From: a virus
Taxonomy: Duplodnaviria; Caudoviricetes
Length of the DNA: 59,895 nucleotides
IMG/VR virus record: IMGVR_UViG_3300009506_000033
Location: 1-59,895 of that record
Strand: one strand, 5' to 3'
A model generated the notes under the pieces. The model worked only from the letters and a program-made list of their open reading frames with translations, was not told where the DNA came from and did no database searches. Positions within the stretch are counted from its first letter, which is position 1. Each line of letters opens with the position of its first letter. The position numbers and the translations under genes were made by a program. Below are positions 1 to 59,515 of this stretch, piece by piece.

Positions 1-144
1 AGCCGCTGAACGTGGAAGGTCAGGAACCCGGACTGTTCGAGGAGGTGCGCCATGTCTAGAATACTTGCACGTGACGCCAAGCATCACATCGCACGTCGGC
101 AGCAGGTCTACACCAGCAACCGCTCCATACAGGGCCGCTGGACA
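1..144. repeat. Terminal direct repeat, left copy (identical to 59752-59895)
   Basis: agccgctgaacgtgg...gggccgctggaca is identical at both window ends. ORF 59508..59810 and ORF 52..519 run seamlessly across the join. Confidence 0.95.
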
Positions 145-519
145 GGCTTGCCTTACGACTACTTGGAGGAGGCTCGGGCGCTTAGGCTTATCCGCTACGA
201 GTGGGAGACTGCTGTGTATTTCGTCACGACATACGGTGAGCCGATAGCGGCAACGCCTATGCGGGGCGACCTCCGCGTGCTGCTTCCATACGCACCCAGA
301 CAGTGGGCACTGCTGAGGCGGTGGCTGCCCTCACCCACGTCGCGCAAATACCAGCGGCTGGTGCGGGACGTTGCCGAGAGCGAGGGAGTGCCCATCGTGT
401 GGGTCGATAACGCCAGCATGCTGATCCCCGCCTGCCTTGGCCTTGGGCAAGTCGGACTGTTCGACGAGCGCTACATAGGAGGAACTCTGCCAGACATTGC
501 ACCGGCACTGCACGCTTAA
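52..519 (+). CDS. Hypothetical early protein with QVGLFDE motif near the C-terminus
   Basis: ORF track. SD GAGGAGG upstream; coupled to the end of ORF 59508..59810 across the circular join. Confidence 0.75.
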   Translation: MSRILARDAKHHIARRQQVYTSNRSIQGRWTGLPYDYLEEARALRLIRYEWETAVYFVTTYGEPIAATPMRGDLRVLLPYAPRQWALLRRWLPSPTSRKYQRLVRDVAESEGVPIVWVDNASMLIPACLGLGQVGLFDERYIGGTLPDIAPALHA

Positions 520-546
520 TCACTTAATCACATAGGAGCTAATCAA

Positions 547-4478: not shown

Positions 4479-4502
4479 TCATTTAACAGGAGCTAATCAA
4501 TC

Positions 4503-5189
4503 ATGGGAACTATCCAATCTGAAATCCTCACTTACGGTGCTATCGAAGCGCATCTTCGAGCACACCCTGACCAGTGGTTTCACGCACGGCAGCTGGCTGA
4601 AGTTGTCCCGCAGCTGAAGGACGCCGACGTGAACAAGATCAGCAACAAGCTGCGGTATCTGGAACAGATCGGCACGCTGGTGCGTCGCCACACGAAGGAC
4701 ACGAACTTCCGTGGCGTCTTCGACTACCAGCTGTCCCCGACTGCTGCGGCCGCGGCCCCGACTACGCTGAAGCGTGTGTACGCCAAGCGCAAGACCGAAG
4801 CCGTGTACCGTGACATCGACGCATGGGTGCAGGCGCACTCCAGCGTGGAGAACCCTATCCACGCCTTGGACATTCGCGCACGCTGCCCGTACTTCAAATC
4901 CCAGTGGGAGGTCTACTCCTATCTGGACAATCGTCGCAAGAAGAAGTTGCTGATTCGCAGCACGGCTGGCGCTGGCCGTATGAAGTTCGTGTATTACTGG
5001 AACCCACAAGCCGTTTCAGCACCTGCACCAGCACCCGTGGAGGCACCGGCACAAGTTATCTCCATGCCGCAGCGCACGAGCGCGGTGCCGGTAAGGTTTG
5101 GCAAGTGTGCGATCAACGTGGATGCCGAGACGGGTGAAGTATCCATCTCCGTTGGTAGCATGGTTATCAACATCAAGAATGCGGGGTGA
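4503..5189 (+). CDS. Putative DNA-binding protein (tandem winged-helix-like repeats)
   Basis: Two similar basic helix-turn-helix/wing segments (ARQLAEVVP..ISNKLRYLEQIGTLVR; ALDIRARC..VYSYLDNRRKKKLLIR); GGAGCTAATC RBS. Confidence 0.6.
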   Translation: MGTIQSEILTYGAIEAHLRAHPDQWFHARQLAEVVPQLKDADVNKISNKLRYLEQIGTLVRRHTKDTNFRGVFDYQLSPTAAAAAPTTLKRVYAKRKTEAVYRDIDAWVQAHSSVENPIHALDIRARCPYFKSQWEVYSYLDNRRKKKLLIRSTAGAGRMKFVYYWNPQAVSAPAPAPVEAPAQVISMPQRTSAVPVRFGKCAINVDAETGEVSISVGSMVINIKNAG

Positions 5190-6111: not shown

Positions 6112-6141
6112 TTTGTAGGTACAAACTGAAAGGAGCTAATC

Positions 6142-6402
6142 ATGAGATTCAAAACCCCTCAACGGGTGGTCAACCTCTCATTCGCAGGATACCTGCTCAT
6201 GACTGTCATCTGCTTCGGCCCGGCAACCGTGGAGAGTGAGCGCGTCCAAGCTAAAGAAGAACGCGAATGCACACCCCAGCCACAATGCCGTGCATACGCC
6301 ACGCAAGCAGGAGTCGGCATATTCAAGGCGGTGTTCTGGCCGCTCTGGATTTCGTATCGCCTAGCCGGTGGTAACGCCGACCTTTACAAAGAAAGGAGCT
6401 AA
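6142..6402 (+). CDS. Small membrane-associated protein
   Basis: Hydrophobic N-terminus and AVFWPLWISY segment; GGAGCTAATC RBS. Confidence 0.7.
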   Translation: MRFKTPQRVVNLSFAGYLLMTVICFGPATVESERVQAKEERECTPQPQCRAYATQAGVGIFKAVFWPLWISYRLAGGNADLYKERS

Positions 6403-6404
6403 CC

Positions 6405-6611
6405 ATGAGCACCGAGTGGGAGTTCAACCCTGATCTTGATATTTCATACGATGAAGTAAAGATCACACGGCACGGCAGCGGGATAGCCGTAGCGTACTAC
6501 AAAAAAGGAAAGTATATCGCCACGATGAAGGTCAGCGAGTGCGACCTATGTCGAGGTGACACCCTGACGATTACGGGACTGACGGGGTCATTCCCCATAA
6601 AGGGGTGCTGA
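6405..6611 (+). CDS. Hypothetical protein
   Basis: AGGAG SD; tight packing. Confidence 0.65.
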   Translation: MSTEWEFNPDLDISYDEVKITRHGSGIAVAYYKKGKYIATMKVSECDLCRGDTLTITGLTGSFPIKGC

Positions 6612-7279: not shown

Positions 7280-7782
7280 CTGAAGACGAAGCCTTTGCGA
7301 AAGCAATGGAGGGGCGACAATACGGTGAGGATGAAACGCGCGATGCACGCGCATGGTTCCACGCGGGCTGGGAAGCGCGGCGCTCCGAACGAATAGCCGA
7401 CCGCCTCTACAACGGTACTGCTGCCGAGTCCGAGCTGGAAGAACTGCTCGACGATGCAGGCGTGATTTACGAGAAGACCGGCTGGGATTATTACGACGAC
7501 TCTGTTGAGATTTACGGGGTGCCCCCTGAGTCCAGACTGGAACAGAGCACCCTGAAGCAGCTGCGTGCCGCTGGGTTCATGAAGGCATACGTGAACCATA
7601 CCGATGGCTGGGAGACGCACTACAACCTGATGACCGGTGTGCCGTGGCGCGTCAGTTACCCAGACAAGCGCAAGCCGGAAGGCGGCAGCATCTGGGTCGA
7701 GGAGCCCGTCCCTACATGGCCGCGCGCATGGTTTGAATCGGGATACGTCTTAGTCATGAAACTGCTAGGAGGAAAGAAATGA
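7276..7782 (+). CDS. Hypothetical protein
   Basis: ATGA overlap; 168 aa. Confidence 0.75.
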   Translation: MTEDEAFAKAMEGRQYGEDETRDARAWFHAGWEARRSERIADRLYNGTAAESELEELLDDAGVIYEKTGWDYYDDSVEIYGVPPESRLEQSTLKQLRAAGFMKAYVNHTDGWETHYNLMTGVPWRVSYPDKRKPEGGSIWVEEPVPTWPRAWFESGYVLVMKLLGGKK

Positions 7783-8078
7783 GCATCATATGTAAGTTGT
7801 TTAGCCATAAACCCCTGACCACAGGGGGCCGGGTCGGCGGCAGGCTTGATTGGGTGGAAGCCCGAGTAACACGTAAGGCCGGGATATTCGCTGCAGCTGT
7901 ACCGGAGACCTACGCTCACGGGTCGCAATACAGGCTGCTGACTGACGGGCGTGCGTACCTATGTCCAGAGTGCGGCGGGTATGGAGCTACTGCGGATTCG
8001 CTCACATGCAGTTTCTGCGGTGGTGTAGGTACGTTGGCGTTGACTGACCCACGCATAGTTACAGGAGAAAAGAAATGA
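7779..8078 (+). CDS. Hypothetical protein with DnaJ-type CxxCxGxG zinc-finger repeats
   Basis: CPECGGYG and CSFCGGVG. Confidence 0.65.
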   Translation: MSIICKLFSHKPLTTGGRVGGRLDWVEARVTRKAGIFAAAVPETYAHGSQYRLLTDGRAYLCPECGGYGATADSLTCSFCGGVGTLALTDPRIVTGEKK

Positions 8079-11489: not shown

Positions 11490-11506
11490 CCACCAAGGAG
11501 CAAATC

Positions 11507-11773
11507 ATGCCGATGAAGGAACGCAACTACAAGCAGGAATACAAGACCGCCAAGGCGCGGGGCGAGAACGGTACGGGATCGCAGTCCGATGACGCGAAGC
11601 GCAAGCGGTTGCGGCGTGAGGCGCTGGCCACGGGGAAGATCAAACCGTCCGATGAACTGAACCACAAGAAGCCGCTGTCCAAAGGTGGGCCGAATACGCT
11701 GTCGAACGCCGAGGCGTCCACACCCGGCAAGAACCGCAGCTTCCCCCGCAACAAAGATGGCAGCATGAAATAG
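11507..11773 (+). CDS. Small HNH-like protein
   Basis: NHKKPLSKGGPN..SN.....KNRS is the beta-beta-alpha-Me pattern; basic RNYKQEY N-terminus. Confidence 0.7.
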   Translation: MPMKERNYKQEYKTAKARGENGTGSQSDDAKRKRLRREALATGKIKPSDELNHKKPLSKGGPNTLSNAEASTPGKNRSFPRNKDGSMK

Positions 11774-12423: not shown

Positions 12424-13088
12424 CAGCGTGGTCTTTTAGTTCGCTCGACCTGTTCGAGACGTGCCCCAAGAAGTATTACCACCTCCGCATTGCGAAGGAC
12501 GTGAAGGAGCCGCCGTGGGAGCACCGTCAGGAAGGCGAGGATGCCCACCGCGCGCTGAAGAATCGCCTGCACCGGGGTGCGCCCCTGCCTGCCGGACTCC
12601 AGAAACTGGAGTCGCTGTGTGCCCGGCTCGAAGCCGCGCCGGGGCAGTTCTACCTTGAGTACAAGCTGGCGCTCAACGAGAACCTCCAACCCGTGGACTG
12701 GTTCGCCAAGGATGTATGGGTGCGTGCCATCCTCGACATGGGGAAGATCAACGGCGACAAGGCGCTCATCCTCGACTGGAAGATGGGCAAGAAGAAGGAA
12801 GAATGCGACCAGCTGGAACTGTTTGCTGGTGTGGTCATGGCGTGGAAGCCCGAAGTCCAGACGGTAAACACCGGGTTCGTGTGGGCGAAGGATGACGTCA
12901 TCACCGACGCATCCATCACCAGTGAGGTGTATACCCGCGAACGTGACTTTGCGCGCATCTGGGGCGAATACAACCGGCGTGTCGCCCGCATCGACAAGGC
13001 TTCCAAGGAAGGAGTGTGGCAGCCACGCCAGAGTGGTTTGTGCCGCAGGCACTGTCCGGTGAGTACCTGCGCCTATTACGGAGAGTGA
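12420..13088 (+). CDS. PD-(D/E)xK Cas4/RecB-like exonuclease
   Basis: SFSSL..FETCPKKYY, E..L, ILD...LDWKMGK, QL..F, C-terminal LC..HCPVSTC cluster. Confidence 0.85.
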   Translation: MTAWSFSSLDLFETCPKKYYHLRIAKDVKEPPWEHRQEGEDAHRALKNRLHRGAPLPAGLQKLESLCARLEAAPGQFYLEYKLALNENLQPVDWFAKDVWVRAILDMGKINGDKALILDWKMGKKKEECDQLELFAGVVMAWKPEVQTVNTGFVWAKDDVITDASITSEVYTRERDFARIWGEYNRRVARIDKASKEGVWQPRQSGLCRRHCPVSTCAYYGE

Positions 13089-13089
13089 G

Positions 13090-13725
13090 ATGAAATTCGT
13101 CCTTGCTGAGACAGCAGCGGAAGCAGCCCGATTCATTCGGGACAACGGCACCCACAGCTACTACGACCGGATGTATGTACTGCGAAACGTCGACCAGCTG
13201 CGAGGGGTTCGCGGCCCCGCCGCCGAGCTGATCGTGCTGGGGTCTGCGCCTATGCGTCGTGACTACGAGCAGATCATGGAACTGGCACGTATCCGCGAGG
13301 TGACGGTGCGCAGGATAGGCCGCGACGCCCCGGCGCGTATCTGGGTCACAGCTGACGAACACTCCCATATGCGCAGGCGGTCGTTCGACGATCAGGTTGA
13401 CGCCTATGCGTACTTTAACAGTCTGCTGGAAACGCGCATGGCCAGAACGGTCACGGTGACTTCCTCTACGACGGCATCTAGTGGAGCGACGTATGTCACT
13501 ACAGCCGCAACCACGTACCCCAGCACGAGCATCCGATCCACGTCGACTTTCGAGGCACTGAGCATTCGGATTTGCTCGGGCCGTATGCCGCCGAGACTGA
13601 CGCCGGACGAGCGTGCAAGAGTGCTGTGTGGTTCGATACTCGCGCACCCACTGGAACCGGTGGCACCGCCACCTAAAGGTCTATTTGACGAAGCTGTGAA
13701 CCTTGACGCGATGCCGCGCATATGA
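13090..13725 (+). CDS. Hypothetical protein with Thr/Ser-rich linker and C-terminal KGLFDE motif
   Basis: 211 aa ORF tightly packed between the exonuclease and VRR-NUC genes. Confidence 0.7.
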   Translation: MKFVLAETAAEAARFIRDNGTHSYYDRMYVLRNVDQLRGVRGPAAELIVLGSAPMRRDYEQIMELARIREVTVRRIGRDAPARIWVTADEHSHMRRRSFDDQVDAYAYFNSLLETRMARTVTVTSSTTASSGATYVTTAATTYPSTSIRSTSTFEALSIRICSGRMPPRLTPDERARVLCGSILAHPLEPVAPPPKGLFDEAVNLDAMPRI

Positions 13726-14027: not shown

Positions 14028-15576
14028 GCGCCACAAAAAACTGGTTGTACCTTCACCCTACGTGGATAAGGTAGCGGCCATCATCCCTTCGGCCAAGCGG
14101 TTCGAGTTGGAAGGTGAGTCCATGCTTGCCGTACCCCACCTCATGGACGAGACACGGGTGCTGCGCAACCTCGGACTGGATGCGCCGAGCCCCATCCTGT
14201 ACTACTACGACTGGCCGCGCATGATAGGCATCGACCCGTTCGACGCCCAGCGCGAGACGGCAGCGTTCCTGACGCTCAACAACCGGGCATATGTGCTGTC
14301 GCAGATGGGCACAGGCAAGAGTTTGTCCACGCTGTGGGCTGCCGACTACCTGATGTCGATGGGGCTGGTGCGCCGCGCGCTGATACTCTCGCCCTTGTCC
14401 ACGCTTGAGCGGGTGTGGGGTGATGAGATTTTCAAGCACATGGGGCATCGCACGTACACCGTGCTGCACCACCCGAACCGCAAGCGCCGACAGAAGCTGC
14501 TACAAGAGCAGACCGACTTCTACATCATCAACCACGACGGCATCAAGGTCGTGCTAGATGACCTGCTGGCGCGCGAGGACATCGACCTTGTCGTCATCGA
14601 CGAGCTATCGGTGTTCCGCAACGCAGGCACCGAGAGGTGGAAGGCGCTCAGAGCGCTGACGGCGAAGGCCGACAGGGTGTGGGGGCTGACCGGCACACCC
14701 ATCCCCAACGAGCCGACCGATGCTTGGGCGCAGTGCCGCCTCATCACCCCGGACACCGTGCCACGCTATGCGACCCGGTTCCGTGACATGACCATGCGAC
14801 AGATCGGCACATACAAGTGGATACCGAAGCCTGACGCACTGGAAGTCGTGGCCAAGGCGATGGTGCCGTCCATCCGGTACACGCGCGATGACTGCATGGA
14901 CTTGCCGCCAGCCATGTTTGAGACGCGGAGCGTGCCGCTGACCGCCGAGCAGAACCACGCATACAACACCATGATGGTGAAGCTGCACATGGAGTATGCT
15001 GAAGGTGTAGTGACGGCAGCCAATGAGGGTGTTAAGATGTCGAAGCTGTTGCAGATAGCAAGCGGCATCGTGTATACAGCTGGCGGTGGTGTAGTACACT
15101 TGGACTGTAAACCGCGCATCGAGGAGTTAGTGAATACTATCTCTCAGGCAGGTACGAAGGTGATTGTGTTTGCTATATTTACTGAGACATTACTGATGCT
15201 TGAACGTGAACTTAGCAAGCATTGGAGTGTAGGTGTGGTGCATGGTGATACGAACCAGAACCAGCGGAACGAGATACTGGGCAACTTCCAGCGCTCCCGG
15301 CACCCGCACGTATTGCTGGCGCACCCCCGCACCACATCGCACGGACTCACGCTGACCGAGGCAAGCACCATCATCTGGTACACGCCTACGACGAGCAACG
15401 AGCAGTACGAACAGGCCAACGACCGCATCCAGCGCAGTGGGCAGAAGCACCAGCCTTACATTATCCACATGGAAGGCACCGTGGTTGAGCGCCGGGCTTA
15501 TTCCCGGCTACGCAGCAAGCAGAACACTCAGGGACTGCTGCTGGAGATGATGGAGGGTACACACGATGATGCTTGA
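14014..15576 (+). CDS. SNF2-family (SF2) DNA helicase
   Basis: MGTGKS, VVIDE, LTGTP.PN, HGLTL, QANDRIQRSGQ. Confidence 0.92.
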   Translation: MLVAERHKKLVVPSPYVDKVAAIIPSAKRFELEGESMLAVPHLMDETRVLRNLGLDAPSPILYYYDWPRMIGIDPFDAQRETAAFLTLNNRAYVLSQMGTGKSLSTLWAADYLMSMGLVRRALILSPLSTLERVWGDEIFKHMGHRTYTVLHHPNRKRRQKLLQEQTDFYIINHDGIKVVLDDLLAREDIDLVVIDELSVFRNAGTERWKALRALTAKADRVWGLTGTPIPNEPTDAWAQCRLITPDTVPRYATRFRDMTMRQIGTYKWIPKPDALEVVAKAMVPSIRYTRDDCMDLPPAMFETRSVPLTAEQNHAYNTMMVKLHMEYAEGVVTAANEGVKMSKLLQIASGIVYTAGGGVVHLDCKPRIEELVNTISQAGTKVIVFAIFTETLLMLERELSKHWSVGVVHGDTNQNQRNEILGNFQRSRHPHVLLAHPRTTSHGLTLTEASTIIWYTPTTSNEQYEQANDRIQRSGQKHQPYIIHMEGTVVERRAYSRLRSKQNTQGLLLEMMEGTHDDA

Positions 15577-15610: not shown

Positions 15611-15631
15611 ACAACACACTAGGAGCTAATC

Positions 15632-16015
15632 ATGCCTAAGGCAGAAGACATTATCTCGGCCTACATCAAGGTGCGGGATTTGAAGGACGAAGTTGAGGCG
15701 CGGCACAAGGAAGAACTCAAGCCCTACAAGGAAAAGCTTGAAATCCTCGGTTCCGCGCTGCTGGAAATCATGCAGAACGTGGGTACTGGTGAGCTGAAAG
15801 GCCCAGCCGGTGTCGCCTTCCGCACCACCAAGACGTCGGCCACGGTTGCTGACCGTGAGACGTTCAAGCAGTTCTGCGAAGCGCATGACCTGTGGGACTT
15901 GGCCGACATCCGGGCAAGCAAGACGGCCATCGCAGATTACAAGCAGGAGCATGGCGATCTGCCACCCGGTATCCGGTGGTCGAGTATGTATGACGTTAAC
16001 GTAAGGAGAAAGTAA
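15632..16015 (+). CDS. Conserved phage replication-module protein (coiled coil)
   Basis: GGAGCTAATC RBS; N-terminal coiled coil and LPPGI C-terminus typical of genes preceding phage SSB/SSAP. Confidence 0.75.
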   Translation: MPKAEDIISAYIKVRDLKDEVEARHKEELKPYKEKLEILGSALLEIMQNVGTGELKGPAGVAFRTTKTSATVADRETFKQFCEAHDLWDLADIRASKTAIADYKQEHGDLPPGIRWSSMYDVNVRRK

Positions 16016-16959
16016 TGAGCACCGCAATGAAGCTGTTTGACAAGGCAGTACCGGCACACATCTCGTCCCTGTTCGGTGTCACCGACAACGATGACCTGAC
16101 GCAAGGCGTAGGTGTGGGTTATCCTGTGTTCTCGATTCGCGGCAGCAAGTGGCGCATCAAGAAGGGCGACGACGAAACCCTCATCACCATCCCCAACACC
16201 GAGGACGCAGCCCCGGCCATCGAGGTGGTGATCCTGAAGGCGAACCCGGCGCTGTCGAAGACGTACTACAAGGCTGCCTTCGTCGAGGGCACCGACGCCA
16301 AGCCGGACTGCTTCTCGAACGATGGCGTCAAGCCCGACCCGTCCGTGGAAGCCCCGCAGTGCAAGACCTGCGAAGCCTGCCCACAGAACGTCTGGGGCTC
16401 GAAGATTTCGCCGCAGGGCAACAAGGTCAAGGCTTGCGCCGACGTGCGCCGTCTGGCTTGCGCACCCGCTGGTGATCTGACTCAGGCCATCCTGCTGCGC
16501 GTACCGGGTGCATCGCTTGGCGACCTCGCCAAGTACGGTGGCGACCTGAAGAAAGCCGGTGTCAGCTATGCCGCTGTCGTGACCAAGCTGGCATTCGACG
16601 CCGACGCAGCGTACCCGAAGCTGACCTTCAAGGCAGTGCGTTACCTGACTGCCGAAGAAGCGCACACCGTGCTGGAGACGATGAAGTCCGGCATCGTGGA
16701 AACCATCGTGTCTCTGCCCATTACCCACGGTTCTACCGAGGGCGGCGAGAAGGCCCCGGAGAAGGAACCGACCAAGGCCGAGACGAAGCCCACATCGAAA
16801 AAGGCTGCTGCAACGACAGCGGCATCGACTGCTGAGGAGGCACCGCAGTCGAAACCGGAAACCCCGGAACCCACCTCGGAAACCCCCGCCGCAGCTGAGG
16901 TGGTTTTATCGCCGGAGCGGGCAAGCAAGCTGGACTCCATTTTGGAGTCACTTGCGTAA
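16015..16959 (+). CDS. Putative ssDNA-binding/annealing protein
   Basis: Position in the replication module; PDCFSNDG..P, CKTCEACPQN, KAC motifs; flexible Pro/Glu/Ala C-terminal tail. Confidence 0.6.
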   Translation: MSTAMKLFDKAVPAHISSLFGVTDNDDLTQGVGVGYPVFSIRGSKWRIKKGDDETLITIPNTEDAAPAIEVVILKANPALSKTYYKAAFVEGTDAKPDCFSNDGVKPDPSVEAPQCKTCEACPQNVWGSKISPQGNKVKACADVRRLACAPAGDLTQAILLRVPGASLGDLAKYGGDLKKAGVSYAAVVTKLAFDADAAYPKLTFKAVRYLTAEEAHTVLETMKSGIVETIVSLPITHGSTEGGEKAPEKEPTKAETKPTSKKAAATTAASTAEEAPQSKPETPEPTSETPAAAEVVLSPERASKLDSILESLA

Positions 16960-16978: not shown

Positions 16979-17230
16979 ATGTCCATTAAACTTGAAACAG
17001 GCATCCCTATCCCCCCGGTGCGCCGGGGACTGGCACTGCCGTTCGAGGCGCTCGAAGTGAATGAGTCGTTCTCAATGGCTGTCCCCAGCAACCAGAAACC
17101 GGGGCAGTTCGCATCCAAGATTCGTTCGCGCGCGATGCTGTATGCCAAGCGTCACGGCGGCAGATTTCTTGTGCGCATTGTTGACGATGAGGGCGAAGGG
17201 GATGCTGTGCGCTGCTGGCGCACTCAATAA
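16979..17230 (+). CDS. Small putative DNA-binding protein
   Basis: IKLETGIPIP..PFEALEVNESF..VRCWRT pattern. Confidence 0.65.
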   Translation: MSIKLETGIPIPPVRRGLALPFEALEVNESFSMAVPSNQKPGQFASKIRSRAMLYAKRHGGRFLVRIVDDEGEGDAVRCWRTQ

Positions 17231-17257
17231 CAATACAGCTCCTCGTGTGAGGAGCCG

Positions 17258-17292
17258 AGAGGTGGTGTGTGTGTGTGCACCACCTCTTTTTT
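17258..17292 (+). terminator. Rho-independent terminator
   Basis: AGAGGTGGTG stem / CACCACCTCT followed by a T-run; a second hairpin GCTCCTC-GTGT-GAGGAGC lies just upstream. Confidence 0.7.
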
Positions 17293-17308
17293 GTTCTATT
17301 GTTAAGGG

Positions 17309-17578
17309 ATGGCCACACTAATGATACCGTCATTCAACAAGACCGTGTTCGATACGGCACAACTGCGAACGACCGAAGTCGCCAGTTTGCTGTCTGTCCA
17401 CAGAGTTAGTGTAAGTCGCTGGCGCGCAGGTAAGCCGGTCGACAAGTTCCTCATCCCTGTGCTTGTTGATTTCCACTGGCGAGTTGGGCAAGCTGTCAGT
17501 TCCGGCAGCCTTCCTTTACCGCCGGATATTCGTGGTCGAGAGCGTGTACCAGCAATAAAACGTGCACTTGAGCTGTAA
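17309..17578 (+). CDS. Small HTH (Cro/XRE-like) protein
   Basis: RTTEVASLLSVHRVSVSRWRAG is an HTH signature. Confidence 0.7.
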   Translation: MATLMIPSFNKTVFDTAQLRTTEVASLLSVHRVSVSRWRAGKPVDKFLIPVLVDFHWRVGQAVSSGSLPLPPDIRGRERVPAIKRALEL

Positions 17579-17610
17579 CCACATCAACAAGAATTCGGGG
17601 GCTAGTCGTA

Positions 17611-20418
17611 ATGGGGGATTTCCTAACTAAAGTATTGCCGTCGCAAGGTGTTTACTGTGTGGCGGTGCAGAAGCCGCAGGGATTGCGGCAGATTTTCGCA
17701 GACAGCATTGAGCAAGCGGTAAACCTGATACACACATGGGATAGCTACGGCTTCACCGTGTACTTTGCTACCGCATCATTCAAAGATAATTCGAGCCGCA
17801 AAGCCGAGAACGTCGCGTATTTGCGCGCGCTCAGGCTGGATGTGGACTGCGGTGAAGGCAAGGGCTACCTGACAAAGCGTGATGCGATCATCGCCACCAT
17901 GCACTTCTGTGAAGAACTGGGGCTGCCTACTCCTGTCATCGTGGACTCTGGCGGCGGCGTCCATGTGTACTGGCCGCTCACAGCAGATACAACCATCGAG
18001 AACTGGCTGACACCAGCCACACGGCTGAAGCAGGCCTGTCAGCTTTACGGGTTGAACGCTGACCACGCCATCACCGCCGACGCTGCCCGTATCCTGCGGC
18101 CTGTCGGTACGCATAACCGGAAGTACGAAGACCGCACGGTGACGCTGCTTGGCGATGCTGATGCCCACGCGCTGGCCGAACTTGACCACATACTGGCGAA
18201 GGCTATCGAAGCGTGTGGGGAGCAGCCACTTCGGGGCTTCGTGGAAGACAAGAACCTCAACTCCGACCTCATGGGCGGCATGGAGTACCCTGAGTCATAC
18301 GGTGAGCGCATTGCCGAACGCTGCAAACAGGTTGGCCTGATGCGCGATACCGGCGGTGACGTGGGGTACGAGCACTGGCGCGGCGTCATCGGCGTGCTGA
18401 AGCACTGCGTCGATGGTGAGGCACTGGCCCACGCATGGAGCGCGCGGCGTGAGGAAACCCACCACAGCCAGCTGGACGTTCAGCAGAAGTGGGATACATG
18501 GAGCGCAGGGCCGACAACCTGCGACTTCTTCCGCAAGCAGAACCCCAGCGGCTGCGAGGGATGCCCCCACATCAAGGCCACGTCACCCATCGTGCTAGGT
18601 CGCCCCGACCCTGAACCCACGGCGCAGCTGGAGATACCGGAAGCCCCGCCGGTTCCTTCCAAGGAAGTCGAAGTCCCGCCGGACTACCTGCCGAAAGGCT
18701 ACCGCCGCGCGACGGACGGCAAGCTGTACGTGAAGACCGACGACGGCTGGCGCGAGTTCAGCAAATACGATGTGCTCCCTGTGTGCATGGAGCGCGATGA
18801 CATTGGCGACATCGTCATCAAGCTGCACGTCATGTTCCCGATTGAGGGCCGCCGCGAACTGGAACTGCCGCTAGTAAAGCTGGCAGAACCTAAGGAGTTG
18901 AAGAAGCAGCTGTATAGTAAAGGGGTATGCCTACGCAGTGATGAGGACGTAAAGACAATGAGCGGGTACTTGATTAAGTATATCGACGAACTACAGAATG
19001 CTGCTGCTCCGATCCAGCTGTATCAGCAGATGGGTTGGACAGATAATAACCACTTCGTCTGGGGTGACAAGCTCCTCACCCCGACCGGCGAAGCCAAGGT
19101 CAGCCTCTCCTCCAGTGTGCCGGAAAGCATCAAGGCCGGGTTTACGACCAGTGGCACGCTGGAGGGCTGGCAGGCTGCGGTAGAGCCTTATAGCCGTCCG
19201 GGTATGGAAGGGTATGCCTTCGGCTTCCTGAGCGCGGCAGGGTCAGTCCTGCTGCCAATGACGCTGTATCGTGGCGTGGTGCTGAGCCTCGTGTCACCGG
19301 CACCGGGCGAAGGCAAGTCCACGGTGCAGAAAGCCATCAACAGCTTCTTCGGCGATCCCGCCCTAACCGCCCTGCAAGCCAAGGACACCGTACTCGCCCA
19401 GTACAACCGCCTGTCCATCTACCAGAACATCGCTGCCACCGTGGACGAGGTGACGGTGATGCAGCCCGATCAGCTGTCCGAGTTCGTCTACCAGATACCC
19501 CAAGGCCGTCAGCGGTTGCGCCTTACCCGCGACGCCAACGAGCGCGCGAATGCGCTGGAGTGGGCCACCATCGTGGTCACGTCCAGCAACCAGAGCCTCG
19601 TGTCCAAACTCGCCACCCTCAAGCATTCCGCTGAAGCTGAGTCGGTGCGCATCTTCGAGTATTACATCCGTCACCCACGCACGCTGAAGAAGTATGAAGC
19701 CGACCAACTGTTCGGCAAGTTCGACACGAACTTCGGTCACGCAGGCCCGCGCTTTGCCCAGCACGTCGCCCAGAACTGGGTCGAGGTCAATGCGCTGGTC
19801 AGCCAGCTTCAGGAAAAGATCGACCGCGAAGCCGACATCCAGAGCAAGGAACGGTTCTGGTCGGCGCTCATGGCCGTGAACATCGCGGGCGGCATCATCT
19901 GCAACCAGCTCGGCCTGACCAACTTCGACATGAAGGCGATCTACCGCTGGGCGATGGAGCAGCTGGCCCTGATGCGCGGCGTCACCGAGAGCACCGAGTC
20001 CGACGCGAAGGCGCTGCTCGGCCAGTACCTCAACGAAGTCCAGAACTCGATGCTGGTCATCGACAAGGCCCCCGACGCGCGGCGCGGCACCATAGCCAGC
20101 ATCCGGGTATCGCCACACAACGCGCTGCACTGTCGCGTCGAGCAGGAAACCGGCAAGGCGTGGATCAACCGGGAGCATATCCGCAAGTGGCTTATCGGGC
20201 GCATGGCCGACTACAACGAGGTGGTACGGATGCTCTCATCCGAGAAGGTCATCGTCCACACCAGCGTGCGGAAATCGCTGGGGGCGGGCACGTACTTCAC
20301 CACCACGCCGGTCGCCTGCTGGGAAATCGACCTCAACTCCACCCCCATCCACCTCGTCATCAACAACGACGATACCGCCACCGTGGTGCGCCACCCTGTG
20401 GCAGACCTGCCAACCTAA
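17611..20418 (+). CDS. DNA primase-helicase (RepB/AEP-like primase, DUF927-type helicase)
   Basis: LDVDCG, VDSGGGVHVYW, ARILRPVGTHN, C..C..C linker, Walker A GEGKST, Walker B TVDE. Confidence 0.9.
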   Translation: MGDFLTKVLPSQGVYCVAVQKPQGLRQIFADSIEQAVNLIHTWDSYGFTVYFATASFKDNSSRKAENVAYLRALRLDVDCGEGKGYLTKRDAIIATMHFCEELGLPTPVIVDSGGGVHVYWPLTADTTIENWLTPATRLKQACQLYGLNADHAITADAARILRPVGTHNRKYEDRTVTLLGDADAHALAELDHILAKAIEACGEQPLRGFVEDKNLNSDLMGGMEYPESYGERIAERCKQVGLMRDTGGDVGYEHWRGVIGVLKHCVDGEALAHAWSARREETHHSQLDVQQKWDTWSAGPTTCDFFRKQNPSGCEGCPHIKATSPIVLGRPDPEPTAQLEIPEAPPVPSKEVEVPPDYLPKGYRRATDGKLYVKTDDGWREFSKYDVLPVCMERDDIGDIVIKLHVMFPIEGRRELELPLVKLAEPKELKKQLYSKGVCLRSDEDVKTMSGYLIKYIDELQNAAAPIQLYQQMGWTDNNHFVWGDKLLTPTGEAKVSLSSSVPESIKAGFTTSGTLEGWQAAVEPYSRPGMEGYAFGFLSAAGSVLLPMTLYRGVVLSLVSPAPGEGKSTVQKAINSFFGDPALTALQAKDTVLAQYNRLSIYQNIAATVDEVTVMQPDQLSEFVYQIPQGRQRLRLTRDANERANALEWATIVVTSSNQSLVSKLATLKHSAEAESVRIFEYYIRHPRTLKKYEADQLFGKFDTNFGHAGPRFAQHVAQNWVEVNALVSQLQEKIDREADIQSKERFWSALMAVNIAGGIICNQLGLTNFDMKAIYRWAMEQLALMRGVTESTESDAKALLGQYLNEVQNSMLVIDKAPDARRGTIASIRVSPHNALHCRVEQETGKAWINREHIRKWLIGRMADYNEVVRMLSSEKVIVHTSVRKSLGAGTYFTTTPVACWEIDLNSTPIHLVINNDDTATVVRHPVADLPT

Positions 20419-20428
20419 AGGAGCAAAC

Positions 20429-20695
20429 ATGTGCATGATTTCCATGATCGGTGACGACTGGCGTCAACGGTTCCCCACCCAGTGGCCCCAATTCAACCCT
20501 GAGCAAGTCACGCGTGCTGAGTTTGAAGCGCTGCGTAAGGAAATGGAGGAGTTGAAGCAGCTGCTGCTTGCCGCCAAGAAGTACGACGAAGCCACAGGTC
20601 AGCCGGACTGCGAGGTGGATGAGAAGGTCGCGCTTATCAAAGCGGTCGCCAAGGCGGTCGGTGTTGATATGGATGCGGTGTTTCCTCGTGGCTGA
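20429..20695 (+). CDS. Hypothetical phage protein
   Basis: AGGAG SD; 88 aa. Confidence 0.75.
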   Translation: MCMISMIGDDWRQRFPTQWPQFNPEQVTRAEFEALRKEMEELKQLLLAAKKYDEATGQPDCEVDEKVALIKAVAKAVGVDMDAVFPRG

Positions 20696-20828
20696 CGGCC
20701 TCTACCGCGTCACCACCCCCTACCTTTGCGCAGGGTTCGTCGTCGAGGGCGGCAAGGTAACGCGATGCGCCCCCATCCTGCGGAAGCGTCTGGCTTACTG
20801 GATGACGGTGGCTAGTAAGGTTCCTTGA
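20688..20828 (+). CDS. Small hypothetical protein (46 aa)
   Basis: GTG 20688 overlapping the previous stop; LYRVTTPYLCAGFVVEGGKV..CAPIL. Its TGA overlaps the -35 box below. Confidence 0.6.
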   Translation: MADGLYRVTTPYLCAGFVVEGGKVTRCAPILRKRLAYWMTVASKVP

Positions 20829-20853
20829 CAGCCCAAGCCGTCCCACCTACAGT
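20825..20853 (+). promoter_or_regulatory. Strong sigma70-type promoter TTGACA-17-TACAGT
   Basis: Perfect -35 (20825-20830), 17-bp spacer, -10 TACAGT (20848-20853). No ORF lies between it and the terminator. Confidence 0.7.
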
Positions 20854-20859
20854 TCGTTC

Positions 20860-20942
20860 AAGGCTGCTGCGATTAGCTCCGCTTTCCTCCCTGAAAATGC
20901 AGCCTGCATTCGCCACCGCTCCCCCCAGCGGTGGCTTTTTTT
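20860..20942 (+). ncRNA. Candidate ~83-nt small RNA with anti-RBS loop
   Basis: Bounded by promoter and intrinsic terminator. Stem AGGCUGC (20861-20867)/GCAGCCU (20899-20905) encloses GAUUAGCUCC-GCUUUCCUCCC. Confidence 0.6.
20912..20942 (+). terminator. Rho-independent terminator at the convergence of the two genome arms
   Basis: GCCACCGCT-CCCCCC-AGCGGTGGC-TTTTTTT. Confidence 0.9.
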
Positions 20943-20945
20943 CGT

Positions 20946-21341
20946 TCAGCGGTTGGAGTTGAAGGCAACGACCGCTGCGTAATACATCTCGCACAGGTCG
21001 GATGGGTAGCCTGCCGAATACAGCGCCGCACGGAAGACCCGGTGGGCGACGTGGGCGGGGACAGGAGGGTTGTCACCCCGGCGCAGATAGTCGTGCAGTA
21101 CGCCCTCGGCAAACCCAAGGAACACACCTGAGCCGAAGTAGCGGATGACCATCGCCTGACCCACGACGGGGATGGCGGCCATCGCAATGGGGATGCTGGC
21201 CCCATCGGTGCGGAAATACTTGGGGATGGTGAACGTCCGGCCCGTAACCGCATCTTCGTACCGCCGCTCAGACAGAGTCATCCAAGGGAACTTGGCCCTG
21301 TCGTTGAGCAGCCGCACGTCGAGCGGGTCGAGGAACGACAT
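20946..21341 (-). CDS. DUF1353-like protein
   Basis: FTIPKYFRTDGASIP...VLHDYL signature. Confidence 0.75.
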   Translation of the reverse strand: MSFLDPLDVRLLNDRAKFPWMTLSERRYEDAVTGRTFTIPKYFRTDGASIPIAMAAIPVVGQAMVIRYFGSGVFLGFAEGVLHDYLRRGDNPPVPAHVAHRVFRAALYSAGYPSDLCEMYYAAVVAFNSNR

Positions 21342-58607: not shown

Positions 58608-58707
58608 TTTGTACGTACAAACCGAGTACCACCCCTGCGCAGTGGCAATCCTGCCACGCGGCAAGCTGCGCAGGTTTCTCAACGCCGCATTTTAGGAGCT
58701 AATCAAA

Positions 58708-59094
58708 ATGGCTAAATTGACTGTTGCACAATTCACCGACCTCATCAACGCACTGGACGGCATCGACGCCGACGTGCACATCCATGTCGCGGTCAACTGC
58801 GACGTGGGTGATGCAGATGCAGTGCGTACCGTTGTCGGTGACGTGGCTACGGATGCACCGACCCCGGTGCCCACCCCGGCAGCTACCCCTGCCAAGACCG
58901 CTTCCGACTTCCCGGTCGGCGCGGCCATCAGCTGGGCGGGTCGCCTGTTCAACGGCGGCGGCACGGTAATCAAGCACAACCCCAACGGGAGCATTTCTGT
59001 GCGCATTACCGACTGCAACTCCCGGTCGCGCAAGCGTGTGAACCTCAATGTTGACGACCTCAACAGCGGGAACCTCACCTTGATGACTGCTTGA
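58708..59094 (+). CDS. Hypothetical protein with Pro/Thr linker and SH3-like C-terminal domain
   Basis: GGAGCTAATC RBS; FPVGAAI.W...GTVIK....ISVRI. Confidence 0.7.
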   Translation: MAKLTVAQFTDLINALDGIDADVHIHVAVNCDVGDADAVRTVVGDVATDAPTPVPTPAATPAKTASDFPVGAAISWAGRLFNGGGTVIKHNPNGSISVRITDCNSRSRKRVNLNVDDLNSGNLTLMTA

Positions 59095-59179: not shown

Positions 59180-59515
59180 ATGGGTGAAGATGAAGAAGAC
59201 CCCATCGCAGCAACACCCCGAGCACCATCGCCGATGTATGGTGGCTTTGCCGTAGGTGATCGCATCGTTGTCAGACTCAACGGTAGCGACGAAGGATACC
59301 ACGGGAGTTATTACGACGGTGACGTCGGTACTGTCGTGGATCGTGACGCATACGATGCAAGGAGTTACCCCGACTCGGTGCGCGTCGACTTCGACGACAA
59401 CGAGGAGCAGGTGGAATACGACCGCACTAACTACCTTGTTGATCTATCTGAAATCAGACCGCTGAACATAGAGGGTCAGGAACCCGGACTGTTCGAGGAG
59501 GTGCATCATGATTGA
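59180..59515 (+). CDS. SH3/KOW-like paralogue with GQEPGLFEEV tail
   Basis: Start ATG 59180; FAVGDRIVV...GDVGTVV...VRVDFD...EIRPLN. Confidence 0.75.
   Translation: MGEDEEDPIAATPRAPSPMYGGFAVGDRIVVRLNGSDEGYHGSYYDGDVGTVVDRDAYDARSYPDSVRVDFDDNEEQVEYDRTNYLVDLSEIRPLNIEGQEPGLFEEVHHD

Follow-up and report, generated by a model that had tools for sequence, protein, structure and literature searches.

A candidate phage small RNA predicted to pair with a standardised ribosome binding site shared by several early genes

Introduction

In phage T4, the protein RegA is described in PMC3014915 as a competitor of the ribosome at the translation starts of many phage messages, about 30 of the early and middle classes. 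Here we analyse a candidate small RNA (sRNA) predicted between the two converging gene arms of an uncultivated tailed-phage genome (IMG/VR record IMGVR_UViG_3300009506_000033). This genome, in the following called the window, is a stretch of 59,895 bp that represents a complete virus record with direct terminal repeats and originates from marine-sediment metagenomes. By function, RegA appears to be the nearest analogue of the window RNA: as presented in PMC3014915, it too is a factor of a lytic phage whose gene lies within the replication gene cluster or closes it, and it acts on many targets. RegA, however, is a protein (122 aa) recognising loose A+U-rich sites, whereas the predicted RNA of about 83 nt would recognise a standardised Shine-Dalgarno (SD) sequence plus spacer by Watson-Crick pairing, with a specificity that appears to co-evolve phage by phage.

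Among RNAs, the nearest systems are c4 of phages P1 and P7, OppZ and CarZ of Vibrio cholerae and proteobacterial sRNAs with anti-SD loops. The account in PMC12197685 has the loops of c4 pairing around the ribosome binding site (RBS) and blocking translation, with a specificity that differs between the related phages; the window RNA resembles it in being a phage RNA with loop sequences complementary to an RBS region. Unlike the window RNA, c4 serves the immunity of temperate phages and controls one operon (ant). The c4 RNA is cut out of a transcript that also carries its target, whereas the window RNA has its own predicted promoter and several dispersed targets, in a genome in which no integrase or resolvase was found.

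OppZ and CarZ are reported in PMC7398697 as sRNAs from the 3' end of gene clusters which inhibit translation of a cistron in the same cluster. The window RNA likewise follows a gene cluster on its 3' side and is complementary to a gene of that cluster. However, OppZ and CarZ are processed by RNase E, while the window offers a predicted, conserved promoter, an intervening terminator and targets outside the cluster as well. For the cuckoo/ar14-family sRNAs, PMC4615179 describes hairpin loops with CCUCC-type anti-SD motifs and a terminator at the end. Anti-SD loops and terminator recur in the window RNA, whose matches to Rfam models stay below threshold; the cuckoo/ar14 families, in contrast, are chromosomal and have a fixed motif, whereas the seed in the window reaches into a co-varying, phage-specific spacer. 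The sRNAs of phage PAK_P3 were considered as a precedent for RBS-directed pairing and rejected: what PMC4933390 reports for them is a match to tRNA T-psi-C loops and two 11-nt phage matches. The literature searched, which did not extend to subscription journals and supplements, held no phage sRNA with a seed co-evolving with a standardised RBS of multiple genes. This agrees with an earlier note on this DNA, made from the sequence alone, whose author knew of no described phage regulon built in this way.

Results

A predicted sRNA is antisense to an RBS repeated in the window

The plus strand genes of the window occupy positions 1-20828 and 52381 to the end, and the minus strand genes positions 20946-52382. 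The converging arms, which end at 20828 and 20946, are separated by a 117-bp stretch that carries the candidate sRNA (Table 1). The earlier note had described a near-consensus sigma70 promoter at this place, followed by about 80 nt without an open reading frame (ORF), a strong intrinsic terminator and an outer stem enclosing a pyrimidine-rich loop. These observations were confirmed with one qualification. The promoter matches the consensus at 10 of 12 positions, and its -35 hexamer is overlapped by the TGA stop (20826-20828) of the 51-aa gene that closes the replication arm. The nine pairs of the terminator stem are followed by seven T residues, and only 3 nt separate the terminator from the stop codon with which the minus strand arm ends. 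For the region 20860-20942 a fold of -33.0 kcal/mol was predicted, compared with -20.4 ± 3.1 kcal/mol for shuffled sequences (z -4.05; none of 200 shuffles was as good). This fold contains the outer stem and has two small loops, AUUAGCUC and CUCCCU. The qualification concerns the ORFs: a TTG-started frame of 45 aa (20825-20962) is listed in this region and a second frame of 21 codons starts at ATG 20897 and traverses the terminator; neither of the two has an SD.

The body of the window RNA carries the anti-SD motifs GCUCC and CCUCC as well as two seeds. Seed 1, with the DNA sequence GATTAGCTCC at 20871-20880, has a mean unpaired probability of 0.79 compared with 0.49 for the body. Its reverse complement GGAGCTAATC was found exactly five more times in the window, which gives six exact copies, five on the plus strand and that of the seed itself on the minus strand. 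Two plus strand copies with one mismatch complete the set. Eight matches with at most one mismatch compare with 2.11 expected, and none of 100 shuffles reached eight. All seven copies in sense orientation are located 0-4 nt upstream of an ATG and all are on the plus strand arms; none was found in the structural arm. The sRNA is not antisense-encoded to its targets. A coding role for the minus strand copy was rejected, the first start being a TTG 9 nt downstream with a stop three codons later.

The predicted 10-bp duplex of seed 1 has a free energy of -17.8 kcal/mol at four sites, and the bulged duplex at 6128-6141 one of -18.1 kcal/mol. These five sites, the two one-mismatch sites, the extended pairing at 6128-6141 and the match of the second seed to the RBS of gene 7779 had all been pointed out in the earlier note and were reproduced. 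From the GC content, the chance of this 10-mer is about 8e-7 per position and about 7e-5 within the 83-nt RNA, a post hoc estimate, as the earlier note had said of its own. For a further copy at any place in the window, both strands counted, the chance is about 0.1. On its own, the evidence from the window is therefore suggestive and post hoc.

Searches of Rfam gave no family at the gathering score anywhere in the window, and no tRNA was found. The scores below threshold, with the gathering scores in brackets, were 25.3 bits for anti-hemB RF02837 (49.5), 21.2 for the Betaproteobacteria toxic sRNA RF02278 (50), 18.5 for ar14 RF02344 (58.8) and 15.4 for mmgR RF00519 (41). A relative from a soil metagenome differs from the window by about 2-18% in the listed pieces; in one contig of it, 3 extra bases are present just 5' of the RBS 10-mer of gene 4503 (window 4487).

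Table 1. Coordinates of the predicted sRNA, its candidate targets and the adjoining genes in the window
Feature	Position	Strand	Remark
-35 hexamer TTGACA	20825..20830	+	
-10 hexamer TACAGT	20848..20853	+	17-nt spacer
Predicted sRNA, ~83 nt	20860..20942	+	5' end placed from the -10 element; 3' end is the U tail
Outer stem AGGCUGC/GCAGCCU	20861..20905	+	Arms 20861-67 and 20899-905; surrounds both seed loops
Seed 1, GAUUAGCUCC	20871..20880	+	Exact antisense of GGAGCTAATC; duplex prediction and pattern search
Seed 2, CUUUCCUCC	20882..20890	+	Generic anti-SD; antisense of GGAGGAAAG
Intrinsic terminator	20912..20942	+	9-bp G+C-rich stem (20912-20935), 6-nt loop, U7
Exact target RBS, gene 547-2229 (560 aa)	535..544	+	
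Exact target RBS, gene 4503-5189 (228 aa)	4489..4498	+	
Exact target RBS, gene 6142-6402 (86 aa)	6128..6141	+	10+4 bp pairing with 2-nt bulge; 10-mer copy from 6132
Conserved orthologous target, SD and spacer of gene 15632-16015	15622..15631	+	10-nt complement to seed 1
Exact target RBS, gene 58708-59094 (128 aa)	58695..58704	+	
One-mismatch target RBS, gene 6405-6611	6395..6404	+	Duplex -13.6 kcal/mol
One-mismatch target RBS, gene 11507-11773	11497..11506	+	Duplex -13.2 kcal/mol
Target RBS GGAGGAAAG, gene 7779-8078	7768..7776	+	9 nt complementary to seed 2; duplex -15.6 kcal/mol
Conserved target gene, 127 aa, phrog_13900 / DUF7307 (Pam3 gp33-like)	15632..16015	+	First gene of the block that precedes the primase
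Last small replication-arm gene, 51 aa, ATG 20673	20673..20828	+	Within listed frame 20568-20828
Last gene of converging structural arm, DUF1353 protein	20946..21341	-	

Seed and RBS co-vary among distant relatives

A search of INPHARED gave no DNA match to the window, and the exact 20-mer of the seed region is present in no other IMG/VR contig. The protein closest to the window's DUF927 primase is P0001 (64% identity), found in Logan assemblies. Scans of IMG/VR, of Joint Genome Institute (JGI) metagenomes and of GTDB genomes with one protein and with two sequences gave only relatives of about 30% identity; for IMG/VR, 580 of 597 candidate stretches were DUF927 primase relatives at this level. 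The comparative set comprises 90 loci, namely 80 of the 580 IMG/VR relatives and 10 of 11 JGI metagenome loci, the fragment L090 being excluded.

The SD-led start with the best complement to the RNA of the same locus belongs nearly always to a plus strand gene whose start precedes the primase stop by about 4.3-4.4 kb. This gene opens a block encoding proteins of about 130, 300 and 80 aa, followed by the primase. Its member in the window is gene 15632-16015, whose RBS is among the five exact sites listed in the earlier note, and homologues of the 127-aa protein were found in 84 ORFs of the loci. Matching was measured by the length of perfect complement since target ranking by RNAduplex energy over long windows is uninformative.

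Co-variation was analysed in the 53 non-redundant loci, window included, that have both the RNA and the orthologous DUF7307 start. The longest perfect complement between an RNA and the RBS of the DUF7307 gene was 8.43 nt on average for own pairs and 5.89 nt for foreign pairs. Complements of at least 10 nt are present in 20 of the 53 own pairs but only in 1.2% of foreign pairs, and those of at least 12 nt in eight own pairs compared with 0.1% of foreign pairs. None of 10,000 permutations reached the own mean, whether scored by length or by duplex energy. The paired stretch of the target typically extends from -13 to -2 relative to the start codon and thus covers SD and spacer, and the accessibility of the seed in the relatives is 0.66, compared with 0.53 for the rest of the body. 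Between them, the loci have about 20 distinct cognate sequences. The RBS AACAGGAGAATGTT of L053, for example, goes with the RNA sequence AACATTCTCCTGTT, and further cognate RBSs are TGAAAGGAAGTA (L011), GAAGGAGCGAAC (L019), AAGGAGCAAAAC (L081), GGAGCTAACT (L050) and GGAGCTAATC in the window. Because the cognate sequences differ from phage to phage, seed and RBS must have changed together.

Further starts match the RNA of the same phage. Among 424 SD-led starts, counted without the orthologous target and without starts adjoining the RNA, 16 (12 without the window) have a complement of at least 10 nt in the own RNA, compared with 1.8 (1.4) for foreign RNAs, and none of 2000 derangements reached the own count. 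The 60.6-kb genome that includes locus L071 contains nine exact copies of AGGAGCAAAC on the replication-arm strand, each 0-3 nt before the start of a frame of 66-520 aa, and a tenth, antisense copy inside its own RNA; the reversed control pattern of AGGAGCAAAC has no exact copy in that genome. Three cognate RBSs, of 13, 13 and 10 nt, were found in L097.

On L097, a 55-kb contig binned with a metagenome-assembled genome (MAG) of Candidatus Methylopumilus, the sRNA module is complete (about 13030-13150) and has a cognate RBS of 13 nt. This hints at Methylopumilus as the host of the L097 branch, binning being weak evidence of a host.

A putative promoter, an anti-SD body and a terminator recur at the end of the last replication-arm gene

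In 82 of the 90 loci the replication arm closes with a small gene whose product ends in G-x-R-x-W, and 79 of these have enough downstream DNA to be evaluated. A terminator was found 50-130 nt downstream of the last gene in 69 of the 79 loci, together with a core anti-SD 5-mer in 63. In 10 of 10 long loci that were inspected, a giant gene of the other strand ends right at the terminator. The upstream gene of the relatives encodes a protein of 65-90 aa ending in G-L-R-V-W-R. The Leu codon of G-L-R provides the TTG of a putative -35 hexamer, and TAnnnT follows 17-18 nt further, at the stop codon. The subsequent body of 50-90 nt has no frame; usually it contains a hairpin on its 5' side together with one to three motifs of the type CUCCUU, UUCCUU or CCUCC.

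Codon usage points to selection on this arrangement. Of 48 non-redundant loci with Leu at the -35 position, 43 encode it by TTG or TTA, two codons that account for 37% of Leu in the primase genes of the same phages (binomial p 5.6e-14). Of these 43 TTR loci, 36 have TAnnnT 17-18 nt downstream, a motif present at 4.7% in control coding DNA, and 42 have the terminator, compared with 18 of 27 other loci (Fisher p 5e-4). Judged from these patterns, the predicted promoter is selected for in the relatives via synonymous codon choice. The bodies are likewise strongly biased: an anti-SD 5-mer (CCTCC, CTCCT or TCCTT) is present in 50 of 56 non-redundant bodies, while 500 dinucleotide shuffles gave 17.9 on average and never more than 29, and a sense SD 5-mer occurs in only two of the 56.

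The window shares with these relatives the position of the element, the placement of the promoter, the anti-SD body, the terminator and the orthologous target. A covariance model (R1) built from 43 RNAs of the relatives, window excluded, had its best match in the window at 20876-20942, with a weak score of 17.9 bits (rough E 0.022). The model is poor, having 4 base pairs and low information, and its next match in the window is a bare terminator (E 0.39).

Genes and further elements of the replication arm

The DUF7307 gene overlaps the start of a 314-aa gene (16015-16959), which is Pam3 gp34-like, by one base, and the DUF927 primase is encoded at 17611-20418. Pfam searches with the 51-aa gene 20673-20828 gave no match, and it showed no homology to the last gene of the relatives. 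Between an 83-aa gene (16979-17230) and the primase gene lies a strong, terminator-like hairpin at 17257-17288 (14 pairs, T-rich tail), and the approximately 320 nt downstream of it hold no convincing gene. The replication block is therefore probably transcribed into more than one mRNA. At the corresponding place directly 5' of the primase gene, two relatives carry the Rfam element int-alpA RF02996 (L003 7908-7976 and L017 7910-7977; 48-52 bits with a gathering score of 35.8), of which no match was found in region 17200-17650 of the window.

A box, AATCACTTAAT, with variants, is present directly 5' of the SD of several plus strand arm genes (window 518-544, 4477, 53247, 55414, 56882 and 57392), two of which, 547 and 4503, are also candidate sRNA targets. 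Early genes may use this box as a promoter or operator element. The RBS regions of the first and the last gene (ATG 52 and ATG 59508) are near-identical over about 25 nt (window 52-75 and 59484-59507). Either the direct terminal repeat or the repetition of a gene junction may lie behind this likeness.

L102, the best-scoring relative among GTDB genome contigs (33% identity on the primase), is 59 kb long and was binned with a Thiohalomonadaceae MAG. At its arm junction (14045-14125) the sRNA module is replaced by a small ORF that is Cys-rich and has an SD of its own.

Discussion

Most probably, the element at 20860-20942 encodes an sRNA of the phage that acts in trans by masking a standardised, phage-private RBS, as an RNA counterpart of T4 RegA. 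The host RNA polymerase with sigma70 would transcribe it from its own promoter, which overlies the last stop codon of the replication arm, up to the intrinsic terminator. The predicted RNA would expose two pyrimidine-rich seeds. Seed 1 would pair with SD and spacer (about -13 to -2) of the standardised RBS, which the DUF7307 gene 15632, first in the block that precedes the primase, shares with at least four other plus strand arm genes, whereas seed 2 would act as a generic anti-SD. By blocking 30S binding, the RNA would lower, threshold or time the translation of the early and replication-arm gene set and leave the structural arm unaffected. A read-through mRNA that includes the anti-RBS sequence might be active too.

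The analysis shows the sequence features, the conserved module, the co-variation of seed and RBS and the cognate RBSs in several copies; that the RNA is made, that it represses and what role it plays are inferred. Pairing over SD and spacer is a classical route by which sRNAs block the 30S subunit, RBS occlusion by sRNAs is textbook knowledge and a few antisense RNAs of phages have been described; because the predicted pairing spans both elements, the RNA is taken to be a translational repressor. The simplest role would be that of a timer or threshold on early translation. Neither an integrase (PF00589) nor a resolvase (PF00239) was found when the complete genome was searched for them, although the phage may have other modes of lysogeny; a lysogeny-type or prophage-immunity role thus gains no support. 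The earlier note had interpreted the element as a trans-acting, multi-target sRNA directed at a standardised RBS and had proposed co-variation of seed and RBS in relatives as a check; as its possible role, the note had suggested a shut-off of early genes or the maintenance of a carrier state. Since this co-variation was found, its interpretation is supported, in line with the conserved module, the excess of anti-SD motifs and the additional cognate RBSs.

Several observations weigh against this reading. Some of them concern the window itself. A scan of 12-30 kb gave four promoter-like sites where 6.6 were expected, so that the promoter of the window alone is weak evidence; the 5' end of the predicted transcript is placed solely from the -10 position, and a repressive sign of regulation is assumed because of where the pairing falls. 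CU-rich RNA of any kind pairs with SDs. RNAduplex computed with 52-nt by 35-nt windows gave values of -15 kcal/mol or lower for 66 of 85 starts, with a shuffle mean of 53.1 and six of 200 shuffles reaching 66, and its free energies reflect long gapped duplexes which do not single out the cognate sites.

Others concern the relatives. In 28 of the 53 loci the perfect complement to the orthologous RBS is shorter than 9 nt, in some of them only 4-6 nt (for example L007, L008 and L058), and the loci are related by descent, so that independent events are fewer than loci. The partial genome G003 has two copies that match at 9 of 10 positions and the partial genome G002 five one-mismatch copies and no exact one. 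Furthermore, the last genes of the window (88 aa and 51 aa) do not contain the G-L-R-V-W-R motif and are not homologous to those of the relatives; L102, nearer to the window by its primase, has no sRNA module at its arm junction, and Pseudomonas phage Rollin, the best cultured relative (30% on the primase), has overlapping converging genes and no such RNA. Membership of the window in the family is based on layout, identity of the target and the weak model match, and convergence is possible. Common descent with the main clade is not established; a patchy distribution or an independent invention of the same device would be the alternatives.

The anti-RBS stretch might instead act in cis, by folding back, or as the processed 3' untranslated region (UTR) of a long replication-arm mRNA from which RNase E releases it, as in autoregulation of the OppZ/CarZ type. 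Its place directly behind the last plus strand arm gene, with a terminator common to both, and the restriction of all targets to the same strand and arm are in agreement with this idea, and sRNAs derived from 3' UTRs that repress their own operon are known from the work described in PMC7398697. We regard it as unlikely, however. The conserved promoter, selected via synonymous codons, argues for a separate transcript. In the window, the strong terminator-like hairpin at 17257-17288 separates the conserved target gene from the RNA, which would therefore have to act in trans, and further targets lie at distances of 15-20 kb or past the end of the genome. Both modes of action could, however, coexist. 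It is more improbable still that the RNA pairs with the RBSs and yet activates or stabilises the messages, or shields them from a host nuclease: the comparative data reveal pairing and not its sign, but pairing covers the stretch from -13 to -2, where 30S binding is blocked, and an inhibitory structure for the RNA to open was not seen, although no search was aimed at one.

Could the RNA be aimed at the host? Seed 2 and most motifs of the relatives are plain anti-SD sequences (CUCCUU, CCUCC), and the sub-threshold likeness to anti-hemB, the Betaproteobacteria toxic sRNA, ar14 and mmgR would suit a generic anti-SD RNA directed against host messages or ribosomes, in the manner of the proteobacterial sRNAs with anti-SD loops, with the match to phage RBSs as a by-product. 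Such an RNA would not track the RBS of each phage, whereas the observed complementarity reaches into the phage-specific spacer and co-varies phage by phage, and we give this explanation very little weight. For the same reason, each phage having its own cognate pair, it is unlikely that GGAGCTAATC is simply a common host RBS. Least credible of all is an ordinary terminator region between converging arms with a fortuitous 10-mer and a promoter-like site. The chance of about one in ten for an extra copy somewhere in the window, the lack of enrichment of promoter-like sites and the post hoc nature of the finding would speak for it; however, the same combination recurs in the relatives with different sequences and with strong statistics.

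Occlusion of a phage-private RBS by a trans-acting sRNA, the reading we prefer, would explain why several unrelated genes of this phage have an identical RBS in common. We further put forward, tentatively and with more doubt than conviction, that a large clade of uncultivated phages of about 60 kb runs a private translational address code, in which one sRNA is matched to a set of standardised SD-plus-spacer sequences and the two sides of the pair evolve together. If so, a single RNA could switch off or time the whole early and replication programme post-transcriptionally and without a protein repressor, and the pairs peculiar to each lineage could discriminate between co-infecting relatives, as c4 provides heteroimmunity between P1 and P7. 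If the sRNA is confirmed, an RNA counterpart of RegA would be added to the repertoire of phage gene control, and the comparative genomics of metagenomic phages would be able to define an sRNA together with its targets without culture. The approximately 20 distinct, naturally orthogonal sRNA/RBS pairs would then be candidates for translational switches.

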